A DNA stretch of 11,639 nt, from IMG/VR virus record IMGVR_UViG_2547132274_000009, one strand, 5' to 3'. The stretch is from a virus. Its lineage: Duplodnaviria > Heunggongvirae > Uroviricota > Caudoviricetes. Of the stretch, positions 344-11,614 are shown piece by piece. A program made the position numbers and the translations under genes. Every line of letters starts with the position of its first letter. Position 1 is the first letter of the stretch. A model generated the notes under the pieces. The model was given only the letters and a program-made list of their open reading frames with translations, searched no databases and was not told where the DNA came from.

Positions 344-1705
344 ATGTTTAAACCGGAACTCCTTTCCCCGGCGGGAACGCTGAAAAATATGCGTTACGCT
401 TTCGCTTATGGCGCAGATGCTGTTTATGCGGGACAACCGCGTTATTCCCTGCGTGTGCGCAACAACGAATTCAACCACGAAAATCTTCAGCTCGGCATCA
501 ATGAAGCCCATGCGCTGGGGAAAAAGTTTTATGTCGTGGTCAACATTGCGCCGCATAACGCTAAGCTGAAAACCTTTATCCGTGACCTGAAACCAGTAGT
601 GGAAATGGGGCCGGATGCGCTGATTATGTCCGATCCGGGGCTGATTATGCTGGTGCGTGAGCACTTCCCTGAAATGCCGATCCACCTTTCGGTGCAGGCC
701 AACGCCGTAAACTGGGCGACGGTAAAATTCTGGCAGCAGATGGGCCTGACCCGCGTGATCCTCTCCCGTGAACTATCACTGGAAGAGATTGAAGAGATCC
801 GCAATCAGGTGCCGGATATGGAGCTCGAAATCTTCGTTCACGGCGCACTGTGCATGGCCTACTCCGGCCGCTGCCTGCTCTCTGGCTACATCAACAAACG
901 CGATCCGAATCAGGGCACCTGCACTAACGCCTGTCGCTGGGAGTACAACGTCCAGGAAGGCAAAGAAGATGACGTCGGCAACATCGTACACAAATACGAG
1001 CCGATTCCGGTACAAAACGTCGAACCAACGCTGGGTATCGGCGCGCCAACTGACAAAGTGTTTATGATTGAAGAAGCCCAGCGCCCGGGCGAGTATATGA
1101 CCGCGTTTGAAGATGAACACGGCACTTACATCATGAACTCGAAAGATCTGCGCGCTATCGCCCACGTTGAACGTCTGACTAAAATGGGCGTGCATTCGCT
1201 GAAAATCGAAGGCCGTACCAAATCTTTCTATTATTGCGCACGCACCGCGCAGGTTTATCGTAAAGCTATCGATGACGCCGCTGCAGGAAAACCGTTCGAT
1301 ACCAGCCTGCTGGAAACTCTGGAAGGTCTGGCGCATCGTGGTTACACCGAAGGTTTCCTGCGTCGTCATACTCACGACGATTATCAGAACTACGAATACG
1401 GTTATTCCGTTTCTGACCGCCAGCAGTTTGTTGGGGAGTTTACCGGTGAGCGCAAAGGCGATCTCGCGGCGGTAGCGGTGAAAAATAAGTTCTCCGTTGG
1501 CGACAGCCTTGAACTGATGACGCCACAGGGCAACATCAACTTTACCCTTGAGCATATGGAAAATGCCAAAGGTGAAGCGATGCCGGTTGCACCTGGCGAT
1601 GGTTATACCGTGTGGCTCCCGGTTCCGCAGGATCTTGAGCTCAATTACGCACTGCTGATGCGTAATTTCTCTGGTGGAACCACGCGTAACCCACACGGTA
1701 AGTGA
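344..1705 (+). CDS. yegQ: Peptidase U32-family protein YegQ (TrhP-like), host chromosomal gene
   Basis: 453-aa ORF with ATG at 344 preceded by a purine-rich GAGAGA. The translation (MFKPELLSPAGTLKNMRYAFAYGADAVYAGQPRYSL...) matches enterobacterial YegQ as I recall it. Length and synteny (followed by cyaR and ogr) match the E. coli yegQ-cyaR-ogrK locus. Confidence 0.85.
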   Translation: MFKPELLSPAGTLKNMRYAFAYGADAVYAGQPRYSLRVRNNEFNHENLQLGINEAHALGKKFYVVVNIAPHNAKLKTFIRDLKPVVEMGPDALIMSDPGLIMLVREHFPEMPIHLSVQANAVNWATVKFWQQMGLTRVILSRELSLEEIEEIRNQVPDMELEIFVHGALCMAYSGRCLLSGYINKRDPNQGTCTNACRWEYNVQEGKEDDVGNIVHKYEPIPVQNVEPTLGIGAPTDKVFMIEEAQRPGEYMTAFEDEHGTYIMNSKDLRAIAHVERLTKMGVHSLKIEGRTKSFYYCARTAQVYRKAIDDAAAGKPFDTSLLETLEGLAHRGYTEGFLRRHTHDDYQNYEYGYSVSDRQQFVGEFTGERKGDLAAVAVKNKFSVGDSLELMTPQGNINFTLEHMENAKGEAMPVAPGDGYTVWLPVPQDLELNYALLMRNFSGGTTRNPHGK

Positions 1706-1977: not shown

Positions 1978-2196
1978 TTACATCCACATAATTTGCTGCC
2001 CTGACGGCAACGGGTGCGGCCTCACGGCGTGGACTTCTCCCGGCTTCACAATGTATCGCTGTACCGACTCATAAGTGATGAACGTGGCGCTGCAATTCAC
2101 GTTCTGGCACTGATGATAACGCTCTTTTGTCGTGTCAGTGATATAGCGACTTGTACGCGCATGTGCGGCATGCTGGCATAAAGGACAATGAAACAT
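1978..2196 (-). CDS. ogr: Ogr, zinc-finger late-gene transcriptional activator
   Basis: 72-aa product MFHCPLCQHAAHARTSRYITDTTKERYHQCQNVNCSATFITYESVQRYIVKPGEVHAVRPHPLPSGQQIMWM with a CxxC...CxxxxC zinc-binding pattern. ATG at 2194-2196 is preceded by GGAAGAGG. The 93-aa upstream extension in the ORF track was not adopted. Confidence 0.9.
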   Translation of the reverse strand: MFHCPLCQHAAHARTSRYITDTTKERYHQCQNVNCSATFITYESVQRYIVKPGEVHAVRPHPLPSGQQIMWM

Positions 2197-2277
2197 CGCG
2201 AGCACCTCTTCCGGTTTTGTTGATGGTGCCATTTTAGTTAATTTATCCTTATAAAACAAACAGATAAAATAAAAACA

Positions 2278-3441
2278 TCACTCATCATCTTCTGTTTCAT
2301 ACTCCACATCAGAAAGCCTGACCTCAAGCTCTAAGGACGTCGTGAAGCCGCTATTATTCAGAAAATGTGTCACCTTAGTGATTGTCCAGTCCTGCTCGTC
2401 TATGACGCGCTTAAAGCCTGACACTTTAACCGGCGTTTCCGTGTAAATATCTGCCCGACCAGTAGCCAGACTGATGGAGAACTCCGCAACGCCCCGTTGC
2501 AGCTTATCCCACTTCGCCTGAGCGGCGCGCATGGCCTGCGCTTTCGTGGCATATACCGTGGTCAGGGCAAAAACGTTGTCAGCCTCACCTGCCATGTATT
2601 CACCTTCGCGCGCTTCCGGTACTTTTGGCGCTTTCTTCTGCGTGACTGGTTTCGCTTTCGGGTGCTCCAGTGCGCGCAGGTGTTTCTCTTTCTTTTTGCG
2701 TTTCAGTTTTACCTTCTGCTTTTGTGGCTTCGGGTCTTTGGTGTGTAACCACTTTGCCGTTACGCCGGTATAGGCTCCACGGTCAGCAATCGCAAAATGA
2801 TGACGGTCACCGTCGCTGCGGGTGATGGTAATCTGCGGGATTTTTTTACCGCTGGCCGTCATCCCCTGCCCCGCTTTGAGAAACAACAGTTTTCCCATTT
2901 TTACCGACACCTCACCGCCGTTGCGTTCAGCAAGGCGGGTCAGGAATTTCGCATCAGACTCCTGCGACTGGTCGATGTGCGGGATTTTAATTCCGGCCAG
3001 TGACGGAGCAACACTGGCTTCCAGCCTGTTACGGGAGGCTATCGCCTCAACAATCGCACCGAGCGTGGTGTCATGCCAGGAGCCTTCCCGGCGGGAATTG
3101 AGCGTCCCGCGAAAATCTGCACTCCGGGCGCGGATGGTGACCACATCCGGCGCGCCCCGGTGTTCTACCTCATCAACGGTGAATTTCCCTTTGCATACCA
3201 GGGCAAAACCTTTCCAGCCGATATACACCGTCAGGACAGCGCCACGAACCGGTAGCCCTACCTGCCCGTCGGCGTCGTTCAGTTCAATATCAAGCTGGTC
3301 AGCCTCAAAGCCCCGGTTATCCGTCAGGGTCATGCTCATCAGACGGTCGCTGATATTGCCGGTAATATCCCTGCTGTCGAGCATCAGCATGTAATCCGGC
3401 GTCAGCGTACTGCCTGCATCAAATGTCAGCGCATCCAGCAT
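2278..3441 (-). CDS. D: Tail protein D (gpD-like, late-gene tail protein)
   Basis: 387-aa ORF (MLDALTFDAGSTLTPDYMLMLDSRDITGNISDRL...) at the P2 D position. Its ATG overlaps the U stop (TAATG), indicating translational coupling. Confidence 0.9.
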   Translation of the reverse strand: MLDALTFDAGSTLTPDYMLMLDSRDITGNISDRLMSMTLTDNRGFEADQLDIELNDADGQVGLPVRGAVLTVYIGWKGFALVCKGKFTVDEVEHRGAPDVVTIRARSADFRGTLNSRREGSWHDTTLGAIVEAIASRNRLEASVAPSLAGIKIPHIDQSQESDAKFLTRLAERNGGEVSVKMGKLLFLKAGQGMTASGKKIPQITITRSDGDRHHFAIADRGAYTGVTAKWLHTKDPKPQKQKVKLKRKKKEKHLRALEHPKAKPVTQKKAPKVPEAREGEYMAGEADNVFALTTVYATKAQAMRAAQAKWDKLQRGVAEFSISLATGRADIYTETPVKVSGFKRVIDEQDWTITKVTHFLNNSGFTTSLELEVRLSDVEYETEDDE

Positions 3442-3920
3442 TATCCCGCCCCCGTCATACCCGTGAATCTGGTCGCCATACTGCCAGCCTTACCGATGAG
3501 CGATTCCGCCTGTTTACCGATATCGCCATAAAGCGCGGCCAGTGATTCATCAACGCGGGTGAGCGACAGCGTAAAATCAATTTTTCTGGGTGTGCCGTCT
3601 GCAAAGAAAATACTCCCTGTTTCACTCACCCTGCTGATGACATACATGCCGTAAATCATGCCGGTGCCATCCAGCAACGGCCACGCCCGGCCTTCCTCTG
3701 CCATCAGTCTGAGCGTGGTCATCGTCAGCTTTCCGCCGGTCAGCTCGGGATAAAGCACGCCTGCAAGCGTAATGTTTTCCTCACCCACACCGAGAAACTG
3801 AAAGGCATCCCGTTTACCGATACAGGAATTTGACGGCCAGCGATAATCTGATTCACGCTGCATGGTCTGGTGTGGCAGCGTCTGGCGCATAAAAACAAAC
3901 ATACCTAACGCGAGCATCAT
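3441..3920 (-). CDS. U: Tail protein U (gpU-like)
   Basis: 159-aa ORF between T and D. Strong SD AGGAGG upstream of the ATG. Length and position match P2 gpU. Confidence 0.9.
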   Translation of the reverse strand: MMLALGMFVFMRQTLPHQTMQRESDYRWPSNSCIGKRDAFQFLGVGEENITLAGVLYPELTGGKLTMTTLRLMAEEGRAWPLLDGTGMIYGMYVISRVSETGSIFFADGTPRKIDFTLSLTRVDESLAALYGDIGKQAESLIGKAGSMATRFTGMTGAG

Positions 3921-3934
3921 TTTTCGTCACCTCC

Positions 3935-6382
3935 TTAACCGTCATGCATCATGCTGGCACGGGCGCGCGCACGTTTATCCCGCTCGTATTTTTCGAGCGC
4001 ATCCTGTAACTGGCGGTCGAGCTGTGTCCCCGGCGCAGTACCGCCCGTCAGGTTGATGTGATATTCGTTTTTACTCTGGTCCACATAAGAGCGGCCAGCC
4101 GGTGCCGTAACTGGCTGATAAGCCTGATAGCCAGCATAAGAGCTGGTCGCCGGAATATAACCACCGGTGCCATACGTGGCGGCACGAGTTCTGGCGGCGG
4201 TCTGGTCAAGCGTGCCTGACTCTTTGTTGATGACGCCGAGTTTTTCCAGTACCCAGTCAATACCGCTGCGCAGTTTGTTGAACGCATTAAGCGGCAGCAT
4301 CAGCGCGTCAGCCAGTGCCTGCCCGAACATGACGCCCGTGTCACGGCAACGGTTCAGGGTGTCCTGGGTGGCTTTGACCGGGGCAATCAGGTTTTTAAAC
4401 CACTGCCACGCGGCCTGTAACTTTTCGCCCAGCCAGTCAAACACCGGCTTAAGTGGCGTGAACAGTTCCCCCACCGGCGCAAATGCCGCTTTCAGCCCTT
4501 CCACCACACCGCCAAAGAATGCGCTGACAGGCTCCCAGTATTTACGGATAAGCAACGCCCCGGCGACAATGGCGGCCACCACGGCCACAACCGGCCAGCT
4601 AATCGCCCCGATGGCCGTCATAACAGCACTGCCAACCGTCGTGAAGATTGCCCCCATTGCGCCTGCTGCCGCGATGATGGCATTGATGCCAGTGATAACC
4701 GGCCAGGCTACGAGGCCAATGGCACCGATGACAGCAGTCAGCGCCAGTGCACCACCGACAATGAGGCCGATGGTTGACGCCAGTGATTTGTTTTTCTGGA
4801 TCCAGCCGTCGAGTTTTAACACATACTTTGTGGCCGTCTGCGTGAGCTTACGCAGTGCGCCTTCCTGCTGGTCAAACAGGTCTGTCCCCACCGCCTCATA
4901 AGCGGACTGAAACTCCTTAAAGTCACCGCCGAGGTTGTCCTGCATGATATTTACCAACTCTGCGGTCTTCCCGTCCGAGGCTTTAAACGCAGCGGTCAGT
5001 TTGTCCAGCTTTCCGGTTGACGCGGCAGTCATCAGCACAGCGGCGGCTGAGCTGGCCTCCTCCCCGAAAATGGTTTTCATGTATTCGGCCTGCTGGGCAG
5101 TACCGAGCCGGTTTTTCTCAAAGCTGGCCTGCATTTCTTTCAGAATGGTAAATACTGGTCGGGTGTTTCCCTTACTGTCTGAGGTTTTCACGCCAAGCTC
5201 TTTGAGTGCATCCCATGCTTTTCCAGTCGGTGCCTGCAGGCGACTTAACACGGCACGGCTTCCCGTCCCCGCCATTGAGCCTGTGATTTTTGCATCATGC
5301 AGCGCCCCGACCATTGCGGCGGTTTCTTCAATGCTGACACCGGCATTTTTTGCCACTGGTGCGGCATAGGTCAGCGCATCGCTCATGCCGTCAAAATCAG
5401 CGGCGGTTTTGTTCATCGTCATGGAGAGAACATCCCCGATATGAGCGACCTTATCGTTTGAAAGCTGAAAGGCGGATTTCATCCCCATCAGCAGGGTGGC
5501 GTTTTCTTCCATTGTGCGACGGTTCGCCAGCGCCATATTCAGCGTGACCGGCGTTGCCGCCTGAATGGCATCAACATCCCCACCGGCTTTCGCAATAATA
5601 ATCTGCGCACCGGCTGCATCATCTGCCGAGGCTGCGGTATTGTCGCCGAGCTGACGCGCCTGCTTGCGTAGTGCAGCCATTTCGGCGGAGTCTTTTGCCA
5701 CACCGAGCACAGCCTGTAATTCTGAGTTTTTCTGCGCAAACTCATAACCGGGCATCAGCAACTTAACTCCGGCCATCGTTCCCGCCGCCGCAATCCCCAC
5801 ACCGGCAGCGCCCACCGAGGCCATATTTCCGGCCAGTTCCTTTCCGGCCTGATAACGCTGTTTTACTGCGTTAAGTTTTGCCTGTTGCGCACTGACACGC
5901 GCCAGCGCGTCGCGCTGACGGTTAAGCTGTGCGGTGGTTTCACTGATACGGTTTTTCAGTCCCTGCTCATCATGTGCAAGATTGCGGGTATTAATTCCCA
6001 CAGAGGCCAGTTCCCGCTGCTGGCGTTTAACGGAATCCGTCAGGCGGTTATATTTCGCCTGTAAGTCCTCCGCCGCACGCTTTGCGGATTCCAGCACTTT
6101 CGCCTGAGCACGGGTCGGACGTTCGGTGTTTTTAAACTGTGTGGCAAGGGCTTCGGCTTCCTGCCGTGCCTTTTCAAGTGCATGACCAGTCACGGCAAGC
6201 TGTGCACTGGTCTTGCGAAATCCCTCAATACGGGATGCGTGACCGTTCAGCTCGCGCAGTGATTTTTGTGTTTCCCGGATATCCCCCGACAGCGACTTGC
6301 TCGCTGTACGGATGGATTTAAACGGGCGGGATGCCTGGTCAACAGCCCTGAGCAATACCTGTAATTTTACATTGTTACTCAT
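3935..6382 (-). CDS. T: Tail tape measure protein (gpT-like)
   Basis: 815-aa ORF with coiled-coil-like N-terminal region and Gly/Ala-rich hydrophobic segments typical of tape measure proteins. The start is overlapped by the E' stop, as in P2. Confidence 0.9.
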   Translation of the reverse strand: MSNNVKLQVLLRAVDQASRPFKSIRTASKSLSGDIRETQKSLRELNGHASRIEGFRKTSAQLAVTGHALEKARQEAEALATQFKNTERPTRAQAKVLESAKRAAEDLQAKYNRLTDSVKRQQRELASVGINTRNLAHDEQGLKNRISETTAQLNRQRDALARVSAQQAKLNAVKQRYQAGKELAGNMASVGAAGVGIAAAGTMAGVKLLMPGYEFAQKNSELQAVLGVAKDSAEMAALRKQARQLGDNTAASADDAAGAQIIIAKAGGDVDAIQAATPVTLNMALANRRTMEENATLLMGMKSAFQLSNDKVAHIGDVLSMTMNKTAADFDGMSDALTYAAPVAKNAGVSIEETAAMVGALHDAKITGSMAGTGSRAVLSRLQAPTGKAWDALKELGVKTSDSKGNTRPVFTILKEMQASFEKNRLGTAQQAEYMKTIFGEEASSAAAVLMTAASTGKLDKLTAAFKASDGKTAELVNIMQDNLGGDFKEFQSAYEAVGTDLFDQQEGALRKLTQTATKYVLKLDGWIQKNKSLASTIGLIVGGALALTAVIGAIGLVAWPVITGINAIIAAAGAMGAIFTTVGSAVMTAIGAISWPVVAVVAAIVAGALLIRKYWEPVSAFFGGVVEGLKAAFAPVGELFTPLKPVFDWLGEKLQAAWQWFKNLIAPVKATQDTLNRCRDTGVMFGQALADALMLPLNAFNKLRSGIDWVLEKLGVINKESGTLDQTAARTRAATYGTGGYIPATSSYAGYQAYQPVTAPAGRSYVDQSKNEYHINLTGGTAPGTQLDRQLQDALEKYERDKRARARASMMHDG

Positions 6383-7389: not shown

Positions 7390-8580
7390 TTAATTGCTGT
7401 TAACCGAGGTGACCAGATTTGCCAGGTATTTATCGGTGATACGCTGGCGCAGGGTCAGGTTTTCGAGAGGAGGCACCGGGGTATAGTCGTAGTCGATATA
7501 CAGTTTTCCGGCCTTGAGGGTTTCCGCATCGTTGGATTCTTCGCTGAACCAGCAGGTCGCATCCACGATATAGCCGTTTGTTTTCAGCTCACGGAATTTG
7601 GCATTGATGCCGTCAACGATGTCGCGAATCAGCGTTGCGGTGATGGGCTTGTCCACCGCCCACATGTGCGCCTCAGCCATCGTGTCGGCCAGCACCTGCG
7701 CGGTGCGGGTGTAGTTTTCAAAGAGGAACAGCGGGTCATCGGAGCAGGTACGGTTACCCCAGAAGCGGAAACCGTCGCGGCGAATCAGCGTAGTGACGCC
7801 TGACTCGTTAAGCAAGTCAGCATCGGTGCCGGACTCCTGCAAATCCCAGAAGACGGATGCGCTGATGCCGGTAACACCGTTCACCCCGACATTGGACAGC
7901 GTTTTATGCCAGCCCTGCTCCTGGTCGATTTTAGCGCGCAGACCCAGCGCACGGGCGGTGGCATACGCGGTGGCGGTGGTACTGGTGACCGTATCCCATG
8001 CGAGGAAATCCGGCCAGATGACCATCAGCTCACGCTGGCTGAAATTCTGGCGGTAGGCTTTCACCTCGGAAATGGTCTTACAGCCCCATGCGCTGATATA
8101 TCCGAAAGCGCGCAGCTTCTGACAGACTGATGCCAGTGCAACAGCCACCTCTTTGGTGTCCAGTCCCGGCACGCCGAGAATACGCGGTTTAACACCGGTT
8201 ACCGACTCCGCCGCCAGCAGGGCTTTCAGTCCGGTGTACTGACCGTTTTCGTCGGTGGTGCCGATGATATTGGAAACGGTCTGCGCAAGTTTCGTTTCTT
8301 CGTCGTCGCCGGTGCCGTCTTCCACACGTACAACAACGGTGACTGGTTTTGACTGGTCAGCGATGGCCTGCAACGACGCCGCCAGCGTGCCTTTTTTACC
8401 GGCCTTTGCAATTGCGCTCTGCACATTGGTAATCAGCACAGGTTTATTGAGGGGAAAGGTTTCCGCATCCGCATCGCTGGCCGTGCAGACCATGCCGACA
8501 ATGGCAGTGGATACAGTGGAAATGACGCGGGTGCCGTCGTTAATCTCCAGCACCTGCACGCCATGATGATAGTCACTCAT
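7390..8580 (-). CDS. FI: Contractile tail sheath protein (gpFI-like)
   Basis: 396-aa ORF (MSDYHHGVQVLEINDGTRVISTVST...). GGAG lies 8 nt upstream of the ATG. Length and position match P2 FI. Confidence 0.9.
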   Translation of the reverse strand: MSDYHHGVQVLEINDGTRVISTVSTAIVGMVCTASDADAETFPLNKPVLITNVQSAIAKAGKKGTLAASLQAIADQSKPVTVVVRVEDGTGDDEETKLAQTVSNIIGTTDENGQYTGLKALLAAESVTGVKPRILGVPGLDTKEVAVALASVCQKLRAFGYISAWGCKTISEVKAYRQNFSQRELMVIWPDFLAWDTVTSTTATAYATARALGLRAKIDQEQGWHKTLSNVGVNGVTGISASVFWDLQESGTDADLLNESGVTTLIRRDGFRFWGNRTCSDDPLFLFENYTRTAQVLADTMAEAHMWAVDKPITATLIRDIVDGINAKFRELKTNGYIVDATCWFSEESNDAETLKAGKLYIDYDYTPVPPLENLTLRQRITDKYLANLVTSVNSN

Positions 8581-8896
8581 CCGTTTAACTCCGTGGTTAA
8601 TGGGTGCAACTATTTTCTGTTGTGCAGAGCATGAGACGCTATTTGCCCTGGATGGTCAGTGGATGAAACAACAGATACAGAAAAGGCGGGCAATTCGCCC
8701 GCATTTCCTAATTTGTACTAACCCAGCTTCCAACTGACAATTTACGTAGCCAAAAAGCTATCAAGTCTGGCAGACTGATTTGTACGAGGTGTGGATAACC
8801 ATAATTATGTGCATGCTAACATCACGGTGCATGAGTCAATCGGGTCTATGCCAAAGAATTACGCCTTGATTGACCATAGATTGCTTGCCCTTGAAT

Positions 8897-8925
8897 TTGA
8901 CCATTCCAATAAAATGAATTATGAT
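8897..8925 (+). promoter_or_regulatory. Putative sigma70 promoter for the HTH cargo gene
   Basis: -35 TTGACC (8897-8902), 17-bp spacer, -10 TATGAT (8920-8925). This is followed by SD GGAGG (8937-8941) and ATG at 8948. Confidence 0.3.
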
Positions 8926-8947
8926 AATCGTCAAATGGAGGTGCACA

Positions 8948-9592
8948 ATGATCAAACACACCGCAGCAGAAAGGGAAACCAACACTTCAGCTAAGCTGAA
9001 TGAACACCAGTTGAACCTTCTGAAAAGAATTAACAACCTCGCTATTTCCCTGATGCCTGAATTTGAAGACAAAAACCAGGCAATTAATGCTATCACGCTG
9101 GATGATAGTTCACTGATGCAATTGCTCTACACCGTTCAACTCGAACAGAAGACTCGTGTCAATGACTACGAACTACGTAAAGTGCGCCGTCGTCGCGAAA
9201 ATCTGGAACGATTTTATCGTGGGCTTCAGGAGTTAGGCGGTACGCTAAAGGTAAATGACGTGGTCGATATTCTTGGAATCACCCGCCAGGCGATCAACAT
9301 TCGCGTTAAGAAGAACAAGCTTTTAGCATTCAAGCAGAACGGTGATTTTATTTTCCCGAAATTTCAGTTCACAGATAACGGGCTGATTCCCGGCTTTGAA
9401 GACGTAATGGCGGCATTTGACGAGAATACCCATCCAATGCTGCGGTTGGGTGTGCTGAAATCACCAATAGAGGTTAATAGCGAAGGCCTGAAAAAGACGC
9501 CGATTCAAATCATGCAGGACGGCGCTAAAAATAGTGAACTTAGTCTGGCTATCCGTGCCGCTAAACAGTTCGGAAATCATGTATCCAGTTAA
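8948..9592 (+). CDS. Cargo protein with excisionase/MerR-type helix-turn-helix; C-terminal region weakly resembles Xre/MbcA/ParS-type toxin-binding antitoxin domains (hypothesis)
   Basis: 214-aa ORF. Start chosen at the ATG preceded by GGAGG with 6-nt spacing; the ORF-track start at 8921 has no RBS. HTH-like segment LKVNDVVDILGITRQAINIRVKKNKLLAF at ~9242..9352. AT-rich codon usage unlike the flanking phage genes. Confidence 0.6.
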   Translation: MIKHTAAERETNTSAKLNEHQLNLLKRINNLAISLMPEFEDKNQAINAITLDDSSLMQLLYTVQLEQKTRVNDYELRKVRRRRENLERFYRGLQELGGTLKVNDVVDILGITRQAINIRVKKNKLLAFKQNGDFIFPKFQFTDNGLIPGFEDVMAAFDENTHPMLRLGVLKSPIEVNSEGLKKTPIQIMQDGAKNSELSLAIRAAKQFGNHVSS

Positions 9593-9600
9593 TTGTTTTA

Positions 9601-9628
9601 AAAAGAGGGGCTAGCCAGCCCCTCTTTG
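9601..9628. terminator. Bidirectional Rho-independent terminator shared by the convergent cargo genes
   Basis: aaaa-gaggggct-agcc-agcccctc-ttt: 8-9 bp GC-rich stem (around palindromic gctagc), flanked by an A-tract and a T-tract. It lies between the stop of the + gene (9590-9592) and the stop of the - gene (9631-9633). Confidence 0.6.
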
Positions 9629-9630
9629 GT

Positions 9631-10341
9631 TTACATTGGTTCTGGCGTAATTTCGAATCCAAGCAGTTCTTCGAACATCTCTTCACCTGACATCGTTCCT
9701 TTGTGCCACCCTTTAGGGAAGATACCTTCGTCATTTTCGATGTAACTGGCATAAGGCACCATCCCCTGAGGGGTATCGGTAAAGGCTGGTGTACTATCCG
9801 GTCGTTCCCAAAAGGCATAACAGCGTTTATAGCGTTTATGCCTTGAGGTATAGGCTATCCCGTCATAGTCACGCCCGAAATGTGTATAAAGATGTTCCAT
9901 TAGCCATTGAGTAAAAGTGTAATCCTCGTTCTCTAAGCTATCCAAAGGAATATGTAACAACTCACAGAGCGCTACAACATCGATCACTTTCACTGGCCTC
10001 ATGACATCCACAGAGCACATATAGTGTTGTGAAAGTACCGATTCAGGATAAGAAATCGTCCCTTCGAGATGGAGCAAACGCCCATAAGCTTCTGCCGCCG
10101 CCGTTAACGCAGAGTCAGAGGCATACCATACCGCCACACATCCCCCTGGGGGGTTGTATCGCCCACATTCATTTTCCTCAATTGGCGCTCTGAAGTTGAT
10201 TGCGCTTTCATACAACGCCATTTGATGACGCTTCAAAAGACCAGAGCCTGGTTGAATGTCAATCGCCGGAATACGTCCAGATTTATTTTTTGCAGCAATT
10301 CCTTGTGCAACAATATTTTTTTCAAATGTCCATTTGGTCAT
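9631..10341 (-). CDS. RES-domain-like protein; candidate NAD+-targeting toxin or abortive-infection effector (hypothesis)
   Basis: 236-aa ORF. Start chosen at the ATG 8 nt after AAGGAG (plus 10350-10355); the ORF-track start at 10389 is 16 codons upstream with no RBS. Motif ECGRYNPPGGCVAVWYASDSALTAAAE (Arg61, Ser75/77, Glu84) resembles the GGRWNPP...Y.ADSA....E core of RES toxins as I recall them (MbcT/ParT type). No search was run. Confidence 0.55.
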   Translation of the reverse strand: MTKWTFEKNIVAQGIAAKNKSGRIPAIDIQPGSGLLKRHQMALYESAINFRAPIEENECGRYNPPGGCVAVWYASDSALTAAAEAYGRLLHLEGTISYPESVLSQHYMCSVDVMRPVKVIDVVALCELLHIPLDSLENEDYTFTQWLMEHLYTHFGRDYDGIAYTSRHKRYKRCYAFWERPDSTPAFTDTPQGMVPYASYIENDEGIFPKGWHKGTMSGEEMFEELLGFEITPEPM

Positions 10342-10405
10342 TTTTACTACTCCTTCTATAAACAGATTAAGCCATAGGCTCCTCTCCATATTGATTGAAA
10401 ATAAT

Positions 10406-10429
10406 CCCTACCGTGCTTGCCCGGCAGGG
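10406..10429 (-). terminator. Terminator-like hairpin with T-tract, ~65 nt upstream of the RES-like gene start
   Basis: Minus-strand transcript reads CCCTGCCG-ggcaagca-CGGTAGGG (8-bp stem with one G-U pair) followed by ATTATTTTC. It could end the upstream tail-fibre operon or act as a leader attenuator. Confidence 0.35.
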
Positions 10430-10756
10430 GGTATGAGAACATGTGTATCTCAATCTCGATTATACCAAGCAAATTTTCTATTTTTCGGAAATTTAGAGAG
10501 TTTTTTTAATGCTTCGCATGCCTTCTCGATGTATTGATGGGGCTGAAAAGAAGAAATAACGCAGGAAGTTTTACGGAAAGGAGAACTATAAAGATTTTTA
10601 TCAAGTGAATTAGAAATAAGAACTTCGCAGGATACTGCATTTTTAGTGAAGATGGGTTGAGTTTCTCAGCAAGAGTCCCGCGAGAGCCATATTGACAGCA
10701 TGCATGACTCGGAGATTATTCCCCATGCAGGATGGTACACCAATGCAAGAGTTGGT

Positions 10757-10930
10757 TTACGCAAATGATTGGATGATCGCGATTACCGACCGTACATTGC
10801 GCAAATAACGTTCTGCGTCGATGCTATTAAGATGCCCCGACCACACCGTACGACGGACGCCGTAGTGATCCGAGCTTAAGAATAGATAATCTTTTCTCTC
10901 CTGATTCACCGTTCGCAGTGCGTTTTCCAT
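10757..10930 (-). CDS. Hypothetical small ORF (57 aa from ATG; the ORF-track version starts at a GTG at 10945)
   Basis: ORF only: MENALRTVNQERKDYLFLSSDHYGVRRTVWSGHLNSIDAERYLRNVRSVIAIIQSFA. No convincing RBS and no recognisable motif. It may be a gene remnant or non-coding. Confidence 0.15.
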   Translation of the reverse strand: MENALRTVNQERKDYLFLSSDHYGVRRTVWSGHLNSIDAERYLRNVRSVIAIIQSFA

Positions 10931-11035
10931 AGCTGTCGCAAGCACAATACTTCCGCTACAGGCACAGAGCGGACTGTCAGATTAGTTTTTACTCTGTGCC
11001 ATAGATGAGTAATCTCACACCAGAGCTAATACGAT

Positions 11036-11614
11036 TTATTGCGGCATTTCTGGCCATTCTATATCCGGAGCATTTTCCGGCTGAACGCGATTCAGTAGCA
11101 CACGGTATTTTTTCCAGTGTGTCAGGCTTAACTTTTCTTCCTCGGTAGCCATATCTAAATCGACAGCATCCTGCAGCGTGGCAATAATTTCACCTGCATA
11201 TGCAATCAGCTCTTTCTTCTGAGAGTCAGCCGCTCTGACAAGCGCATCACGCTCTGCATTCTCATCATTCACCCACGCATTTCCGTCCCATTTCTGATAA
11301 TCCCCATCCGGGGAAATGGCTGTCACGTCTGGAGGTAATGCGCCAAGTTCAGAAATATAAATGGCTGCTCCCGTTTTCGTTTCGTAGACAGTCTTTCCGC
11401 GATGATCTTCCATCAACTCCCATTTCATTTCATCTGCATTGAAAACGGCTGCATAACCAGCCGGTATATCAGGCGGCGCAATATCTGTACTGTTTGCAGG
11501 CAGACCTGTATACGGCGGAATATACGCATCACTTTCCCCAATAAATTCATTGGTTCCATCAAGTAAATTGAAAACGCGGATAGTTTGTGCTTCTGCACTC
11601 ATTCTGAAAGCCAT
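11036..11614 (-). CDS. Tail fiber assembly protein (gpG/Tfa-like chaperone)
   Basis: 192-aa [62 protein letters not shown]...[26 protein letters not shown]. The N- and C-terminal signatures are typical of enterobacterial Tfa proteins. It occupies the P2 G position, upstream of the Z/fun locus. Confidence 0.85.

Follow-up and report, generated by a model that had tools for sequence, protein, structure and literature searches.

Toxins with a RES domain form a large family whose physiological role is still debated. MbcT of Mycobacterium tuberculosis (Rv1989c; PDB 6fkg) is a RES NAD+ phosphorylase encoded in an antitoxin-toxin operon together with its antitoxin MbcA (Rv1990c). NatT of Pseudomonas aeruginosa, the toxin of NatR-NatT (PDB 8qnl, 8qnq; PMC11535050), is a RES NAD+/NADP+ phosphorylase with a 'Flap', and the NatRT operon belongs to the core genome, is linked to persistence and is reportedly absent from enterobacteria (Santi et al. 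2024, PMC11535050). KnaAT of Klebsiella pLVPK-like plasmids, RES-Xre of Pseudomonas putida and ParST of Sphingobium are co-transcribed bicistronic operons that join an antitoxin of the Xre-type helix-turn-helix (HTH) plus DUF2384 kind to a short toxin (R27/E48/S115 in KnaT; PMC10896132). MbcT and NatT are phosphorylases, and NAD+ depletion has been shown for RES-Pp of P. putida and for KnaT (PMC11535050, PMC12457610, PMC10896132). Here we analyze an 11,639-nt stretch of the Caudoviricetes record IMGVR_UViG_2547132274_000009 (hereafter the window, meaning the whole stretch), which carries a gene for a 236-amino-acid (aa) RES-domain toxin on the minus strand (9631-10341) and, converging on it from the plus strand (8948-9592), a gene for a 214-aa winged-HTH protein.

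The two-gene cassette resembles KnaAT and its kin in several respects: by homology, its toxin would be a NAD+-using RES enzyme, it is a small mobile unit common on plasmids, and the DNA-binding partner is likely to be autoregulating. Unlike in those modules, the HTH is of another family, a single terminator serves the two convergent genes, and the toxin has a length of 236 aa. The same-strand operon of the canonical RES-Xre modules was not found, the two genes lying on opposite strands, here 38 bp apart, in all related loci examined, whereas the linkage to a DNA-binding, autoregulating partner was, as seen in the pairing of the genes, the correlation of their identities (r = 0.99) and a symmetric operator in five loci, to which binding is predicted. 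Compared with MbcT-MbcA, the genes are convergent instead of forming an antitoxin-toxin operon, and the partner is a 214-aa protein of the Rv2175c type, while MbcA is a short DUF2384 protein. Compared with NatRT, the cassette is mobile, enterobacterial and convergent. Membership of the RES family is already known, since RefSeq WP_061157870.1, an identical or near-identical protein, is named 'RES family NAD+ phosphorylase'; what is new is the convergent architecture with a winged-HTH partner and the location in a defence hotspot. Taken as a whole, the pair is probably a non-canonical toxin-antitoxin-like RES module. A RES toxin with a different partner family and a convergent layout broadens the RES toxin-antitoxin concept, and predictors based on operons would miss such a cassette. 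The practical value remains modest, given that RefSeq already gives the protein the right name and that its chemistry is probably the known one.

The RES protein and its conserved residues

The open reading frame (ORF) of the RES gene runs on the minus strand from an ATG at 10341-10339 to a stop codon at 9633-9631. A sequence-only reading of the same DNA had placed a 236-aa ORF at exactly 9631-10341; we confirmed these limits and add the minus strand, which it had not given. A Shine-Dalgarno sequence, GGAG, is read on the minus strand at 10350-10353, 8 nt before the ATG at 10341, and AGGAG is kept upstream of the RES gene in close homologous loci. A 252-aa reading from an ATG at 10389 was rejected, as it has no Shine-Dalgarno sequence, the upstream ATG is out of frame in the Klebsiella grimontii locus (L007), and PGAP uses 10341. 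The plus-strand ORFs within 9631-10341 (51-93 aa) were likewise set aside as antisense shadows of the RES frame.

The family of the protein was assigned from Pfam, an AlphaFold2 model compared by Foldseek, residue conservation and RefSeq. The Pfam RES hidden Markov model (HMM; PF08808) matched residues 50-182 of the 236-aa form over HMM positions 15-141 of 157, with an E value of 2.4e-12 and 47.6 bits against a curated gathering cut-off of 23.2, and the precomputed PF08808 label is present on all of the close homologues (34/34). The RES family call made from the sequence alone was thus right. The AlphaFold2 model, for which 25 homologues were used, reached a predicted local distance difference test score (pLDDT) of 87 and a predicted template-modeling score (pTM) of 0.85. 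When it was compared with the PDB by Foldseek, the best match was MbcT 6fkg (E 4.7e-8 and 1.8e-7), followed by NatT (6e-3), RES-Pp (2.8e-2), VPA0770 and ParT (0.4-1.5), and also by diphtheria toxin; all of the solved RES toxins listed in PMC12457610 were recovered in this way. The likeness to MbcT and ParT noted in the sequence-only reading is therefore borne out at the level of the predicted fold, with MbcT the best match among solved RES toxins and diphtheria toxin. We are in little doubt that the gene is a genuine member of the RES-domain family with an ADP-ribosyltransferase-like fold.

At the sequence level, the protein stands far from the characterized toxins. A phmmer search and three profile searches of the RES protein against the PDB gave no significant RES toxin; the sole sequence-level matches were non-significant ParT alignments over the R..GRxN..Y..E segment. 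Since HMMER reaches no solved RES toxin with either the single sequence or the profiles, we regard the protein as a divergent branch. Its identity to MbcT is 15-16%, a distance that HMMER profiles of the subfamily fail to bridge. Relatives are few: searched exhaustively with a profile, 1.84 billion cluster representatives yielded just 60 at E up to 1e-3. At the level of the fold, ~200 alignment columns are matched to MbcT; peculiar to the subfamily are a short N-terminal helix and ~50 C-terminal residues, the latter making the toxin here longer than MbcT. The sequence-only reading had found no counterpart for the 'remaining ~150 residues' outside the motif; this does not hold, given the Pfam coverage of residues 50-182, the extent of the MbcT match and an invariant arginine, R38, upstream of the Pfam match.

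To define the conserved residues, we aligned 45 RES relatives with identities down to ~20%. R38, R61 (within GRYN), Y73, E84 and G161 were invariant in 45/45, S166 was present in 39/45 in the motif DGIaY-x-S-R-H, R167 was present in 41/45, and R88 was conserved among the relatives. The segment GRYNPPGG...VWYASDSALTAAAE, from which an Arg/Ser/Glu core had been proposed, corresponds to residues 60-84, and the numbering of R61, S75, S77 and E84 given for it is correct. The arginine and the glutamate of this core stood up, R61 and E84 being invariant, whereas the serines did not: position 75 is Ala in 32/45 relatives and position 77 is variable, so that neither was retained as a catalytic serine and S75A/S77A mutants would be uninformative. 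By motif position, the family serine is most likely S166. The predicted catalytic or NAD+-pocket residues are R38, R61, Y73, E84, S166 and R167. Of these, R38, R61, Y73, S166 and R167 plausibly correspond, by order and spacing, to R23, R82, Y93, S184 and R186 of NatT (Santi et al. 2024, PMC11535050). With only 23 residues between R38 and R61, the RES protein here has no Flap.

The winged-HTH partner, its pairing with the RES gene and the regulatory signals

The partner gene (8948-9592, plus strand) encodes a Rv2175c-type winged-HTH DNA-binding protein with a helical N-terminal region and a C-terminal helical domain, and its stop codon lies 38 bp from that of the RES gene, on which it converges. 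RefSeq names the protein 'hypothetical protein' or 'DNA-binding protein'. The model of the partner has a pLDDT of 79, rising above 85 across residues 90-210. Pfam Rv2175c_wHTH (PF21531) is matched by 24/29 partner homologues, and 7/29 give a weak match to the Xre/MbcA/ParS antitoxin 'middle domain'; the families listed did not include the toxin-binding domain. Three sequence searches of the partner against the PDB gave no significant antitoxin and only a weak match to Rv2175c, and in PHROGs the partner matched an excisionase HTH only, with neither protein matching a defence or toxin family. The best match, Rv2175c of M. tuberculosis (PDB 2kfs), is a stand-alone regulator with 13-14% identity to the partner, which has an extra N-terminal helical region of ~95 residues (modeled with low confidence). 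Rv2175c is not known to be associated with a RES gene. We predict that the partner is both antitoxin and autoregulator, and its C-terminal helical domain is a candidate for a diverged toxin-binding domain.

The sequence-only reading had treated the RES protein as a lone effector, a view that the strict pairing of the gene with its convergent winged-HTH neighbor contradicts. The partner lies adjacent to the RES gene and convergent with it, at a distance of 30-45 bp, in 10/11 genome loci from nine genera, the eleventh ending at a contig edge. The convergent pair also occurs in 3 IMG/VR prophage contigs and on a Klebsiella IncHI1B plasmid. The same pair is found with RES relatives of ~30% identity on plasmids of Aeromonas salmonicida, E. 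coli, Pseudomonas syringae and Serratia marcescens, where the partner has an identity of 24-33%. Across 15 loci, the identities of RES and partner to the window copies co-vary with r = 0.99; since these loci are phylogenetically related, the value shows co-inheritance and not independent events. In two Erwinia loci, only the toxin has decayed: RES has a premature stop at codon 44 in one (L013) and a frameshift with an altered N-terminus in the other (L011), while the partner gene is intact in both, the pattern expected of a toxin and its antidote. As a separate observation, the Serratia marcescens plasmid (NZ_CP053380.1, L021) carries a second, much longer 'RES family NAD+ phosphorylase' gene (4398-5570), ~600 bp past the partner, so that one short interval holds two different RES proteins.

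Upstream of the partner gene, a consensus scan found a sigma-70-type promoter, TTGACC-17 nt-TATGAT (8897-8925, plus strand; 10/12 matches). Both TTGACCATT and the -10 element of this promoter are invariant or nearly so in 10 loci, and equivalent promoters precede the partner gene in distant relatives. The promoter lies within a predicted operator (8870-8955) of four TTGACCATT-like half-sites that form two nested inverted repeats, the inner one at 8897-8905/8926-8934 with 20 nt between its arms and the outer one at 8870-8878/8947-8955. When the 11.6-kb window was scanned for TTGACCATT with up to 1 mismatch, 4/5 matches fell within this 86-bp stretch, and no TTGACCATT-like operator site was found upstream of RES. 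A 9-10-nt inverted repeat with a gap of exactly 20 nt brackets the partner promoter in five divergent loci: the window, the Klebsiella plasmid, and the Aeromonas, E. coli and P. syringae plasmids that carry the ~30%-identity relatives. The half-site sequence varies between these lineages while the symmetry is kept. Together, these features provide strong in-silico evidence for an autoregulatory operator at the partner promoter.

Between the convergent stop codons lies a hairpin (9602-9627) that reads as a bidirectional intrinsic terminator, its perfect 11-bp stem and 4-nt loop being set between an A-run and a T-run. A hairpin is also present between the two genes in the distant E. coli (L019) and Aeromonas (L018) plasmids.

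On the RES side, ~390 bp of noncoding DNA upstream of the gene are conserved within the cassette. In the region next to the start codon (10342-10467, minus strand), an extended -10 element, TGGTATAAT (10467-10459), precedes a small hairpin and, ~65 nt before the RES start codon, a terminator-like hairpin (10429-10406) with a U-run behind it; then comes the palindrome AGCC-TAT-GGCT (10381-10369), read as TATAAT in a single Pseudescherichia locus. The hairpin and its U-run are kept in diverged loci, with 3 pairs changed on both sides in a compensatory manner; the hairpin feature was not found in the ~30%-identity relatives, and Rfam gave no match in the cargo region, including 10342-10467. Judged from the sequence, the region may be a leader attenuator, a small RNA of ~55 nt or an insulator. 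Farther upstream, ~300 bp of AT-rich noncoding DNA (10430-10734) are ~85% conserved across genera within the cassette. A third gene in 10430-11035 was considered and rejected, as the indels in the 10430-10740 alignment are not multiples of three and the one 62-aa ORF is a transposase fragment.

Habitats of the cassette, its proposed mechanism and competing explanations

The extent of the mobile cassette was taken as the DNA common to loci in other genera and contexts. By blastn, the window shares 84-89% identity with loci of Pantoea, Proteus, Rahnella, Pluralibacter and E. coli A28 from 8785/8889 to 10634/10734, which gives a maximal cassette of 8785-10734. In the window, the RES gene is housed in the variable slot between the prophage genes FI and G, the P2 Z/fun position. 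The fun locus was described as a second defence-enriched site of P2-like phages, one that gave three validated systems in addition to fun (Vassallo et al. 2022, PMC9519451), and the suggestion that the gene sits in a prophage defence hotspot is thereby upheld. The cassette is similar to Z/fun cargo and to that of other P2/P4 hotspots in its G-FI position and in its variable, low-G+C, horizontally acquired content (PMC9122126, PMC9519451).

Defence-related neighbors occur in other contexts as well. In Pantoea sp. C2G6 (L004), the RES cassette has an AbiV-family gene (Pfam E 1.8e-44) immediately upstream and an integrase fragment nearby; in a Proteus conjugative element, its direct neighbor is a dCTP-deaminase defence gene; the Klebsiella cassette lies ~2.5-5 kb from a type II restriction-modification pair; and in E. 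coli A28, the cassette adjoins ArdC/DUF5710. As an aside on the Pantoea locus, its 2891-3760 and 4618-5310 intervals hold an AbiV-family gene and a 289-aa predicted membrane protein with no family match, beyond the integrase fragment, and look like a small defence islet.

From the family and fold of both proteins, their strict pairing, the architecture of genes and signals and the genomic contexts, we infer the NAD+ chemistry, the neutralization by binding, the trigger and the biological role as follows. The cassette would be a self-contained, horizontally mobile two-gene unit of ~1.6-1.95 kb, carried here as cargo of the Z/fun slot in a P2-like prophage. The RES toxin, which we expect to consume NAD+ because it is homologous to MbcT, NatT, RES-Pp and KnaT, would bind and destroy NAD+, most likely by phosphorolysis or hydrolysis, via R38, R61, Y73, E84 and S166/R167, and growth would stop. 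The partner would be made from its good sigma-70 promoter, which it would repress through the symmetric operator, and by analogy with the Xre, MbcA, ParS and NatR antitoxins it would neutralize RES by direct binding. RES would be transcribed separately, from an insulated and probably attenuated region, and the shared bidirectional terminator would keep the two transcripts from running into each other. Unbound RES would deplete NAD+ once partner ran short, which might happen if a phage shut down host transcription or made a factor that ties up the partner, or if the element were lost. In a prophage, this could serve abortive infection against competing phages, and on a plasmid, post-segregational killing; the two roles could coexist.

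Known NAD-targeting immunity uses only TIR and SIR2 domains (Santi et al. 2024, PMC11535050). The collapse of the NAD+ pool in an infected cell that we propose here would liken the cassette to the TIR effectors of Thoeris, CBASS and Pycsar and the SIR2 effectors of DSR, Nezha and pAgo; their fold is unrelated to that of RES, and they respond to dedicated sensors or second messengers and not to release from an antitoxin-like partner. Because the cassette places a RES enzyme in a prophage hotspot validated for defence, and beside AbiV and dCTP-deaminase defence genes elsewhere, the gap in RES-based immunity becomes directly testable. An anti-phage role of the cassette alone is a tentative proposal that may well prove wrong. 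If anything a little more doubtful is the full proposal, that the cassette is an unrecognized anti-phage abortive-infection system, the first in which a RES enzyme and not TIR or SIR2 collapses the NAD+ pool, under autoregulated, convergent control by a Rv2175c-type winged-HTH protein, to which the leader RNA may add a second, transcriptional trigger.

Several points weigh against the toxin-antitoxin-like module and its anti-phage role. The convergent transcription is unlike that of known RES-Xre modules. According to Santi et al. 2024 (PMC11535050), immunity has not been linked to any RES toxin-antitoxin system, and not all RES toxins degrade NAD+, as ParT ADP-ribosylates Prs (PMC12457610). 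Neither protein matched any family of PADLOC-DB v2.0.0 at E up to 1, and NCBIfam and PHROGs gave nothing meaningful for either. Among the papers searched, none deals with this RES subfamily or with a RES-based defence system, and the main texts of Rousset et al. 2022 (PMC9122126) and Vassallo et al. 2022 (PMC9519451) make no mention of the cassette. By tblastn, RES relatives are found on 141 plasmids, 114 of them conjugative, and in no GenBank phage record; because plasmids are the commonest habitat, these counts argue for plasmid addiction over immunity.

Addiction is also the competing explanation that fares best. The cassette would then be purely an addiction or stabilization module for plasmids, integrative and conjugative elements and prophages, with no role in defence, and would have reached the P2 slot by hitch-hiking; we consider this a possibility to be taken seriously, if not the one we expect. 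Beyond the plasmid counts, it is favored by a 5.2-kb mobilizable Aeromonas plasmid on which the pair is kept as 2/6 annotated features, by an E. coli plasmid on which the pair adjoins ccdAB, and by KnaAT, a canonical RES-Xre module that stabilizes a Klebsiella virulence plasmid (PMC10896132). In several genomes, the chromosomal copy apparently stands alone between housekeeping-like genes, as judged from the ORF listing, and the prophage version occurs in only 10/5426 complete E. coli genomes. These points have to be set against the defence genes or defence hotspot that neighbor the cassette in four independent contexts, and against the little that an integrated prophage gains from post-segregational killing. 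Moreover, a toxin-antitoxin module can serve both addiction and defence.

A second explanation concerns the chemistry. RES could be a ParT-like protein mono-ADP-ribosyltransferase whose target is, for example, Prs or a phage protein, and would then not deplete the NAD+ pool. The fold is common to ParT and to VPA0770, a predicted ADP-ribosyltransferase, both of which are among the Foldseek matches, and the only sequence-level PDB matches, although non-significant, are to ParT. A surface for binding a target could be built from the C-terminal extension of ~50 residues together with the N-terminal helix, and activities within the RES family are mixed (PMC12457610). In the structural ranking, however, the NAD+ phosphorylase MbcT is far the best match (E 4.7e-8 against 0.4-1.5 for ParT) and NatT also comes ahead, which mildly favors NAD+ degradation. 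In addition, R167 following S166, together with the conserved R88, resembles in its spacing the phosphate-binding Arg/Tyr set of NatT (PMC11535050). We therefore hold protein ADP-ribosylation to be unlikely and retain NAD+ degradation as the preferred activity.

A third explanation accepts the enzyme and doubts the antitoxin: the winged-HTH protein would act only as a regulator or sensor and would not bind RES, which would be restrained through RNA, by the terminator-containing leader or small RNA upstream, or would depend on an activating signal. By sequence, the partner shows no signature of a toxin-binding domain, its best match is a stand-alone regulator, a conserved extended -10 element and a terminator-like hairpin stand between upstream transcription and the RES start codon, and the two genes, being transcribed separately, have no inherent stoichiometric coupling. 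Even with these points, we judge a purely regulatory partner to be distinctly unlikely. Least of all do we credit the view that the RES gene is an inactive relic, a decaying toxin without current function: RES is disrupted in 2/11 genomic loci and a transposase remnant adjoins the cassette in the window, but the window copy is full length with all invariant residues intact, 10 E. coli genomes and 3 viral contigs carry it at 99.6-100% identity, and the family is kept from ~90% to 20% identity with its motif set preserved, so that this is highly improbable.

The prophage slot and neighboring features

The window covers the tail region of a P2-like prophage, with genes for Ogr, gpD, gpU, the tape measure, gpE (tail assembly chaperone), FII (tube) and FI (sheath) on the minus strand, as identified by Pfam matches of the window proteins. 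The slot that holds the cassette is bordered on the left by the tail sheath gene FI (7390-8580, minus strand; Pfam Phage_sheath_1 and Phage_sheath_1C, RefSeq and comparison with phage Wphi) and on the right by the tail-fibre assembly gene G (11036-11614, minus strand; Pfam Caudo_TAP, E 1.3e-40, RefSeq and comparison with Wphi). It spans 2.45 kb (8580 to 11036) and has a G+C content of 40-47%, against 55-58% in the tail genes. Phage Wphi has the unrelated orf44 at this position, and other P2-like phages match at the slot borders only.

Between the cassette and gene G lies a 62-aa ORF (10757-10945, minus strand), an insertion sequence remnant that matches transposases in PHROGs (phrog_1631, E 1e-6; phrog_688, E 1.7e-5) and is without RefSeq annotation. 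It is probably the scar of the event that delivered the cargo. In the Pluralibacter, Pantoea and Proteus loci, the DNA upstream of RES likewise contains short pieces of this ORF.

Supplementary file 6 of Rousset et al. (PMC9122126) gives P2 hotspot contents such as 'DinI + KAP_NTPase + RES' (WP_077758113), in a different arrangement and at another P2-like hotspot. In the part of the file covered, RES appears only beside KAP_NTPase, and its accession is not that of the window protein. The listing suggests that RES domains recur as prophage cargo.

A host U32-family peptidase gene (344-1705, plus strand) occupies the left end of the window; the prophage Ogr gene (1978-2259, minus strand) comes next, and this order places the junction between prophage and chromosome at ~1706-1977.

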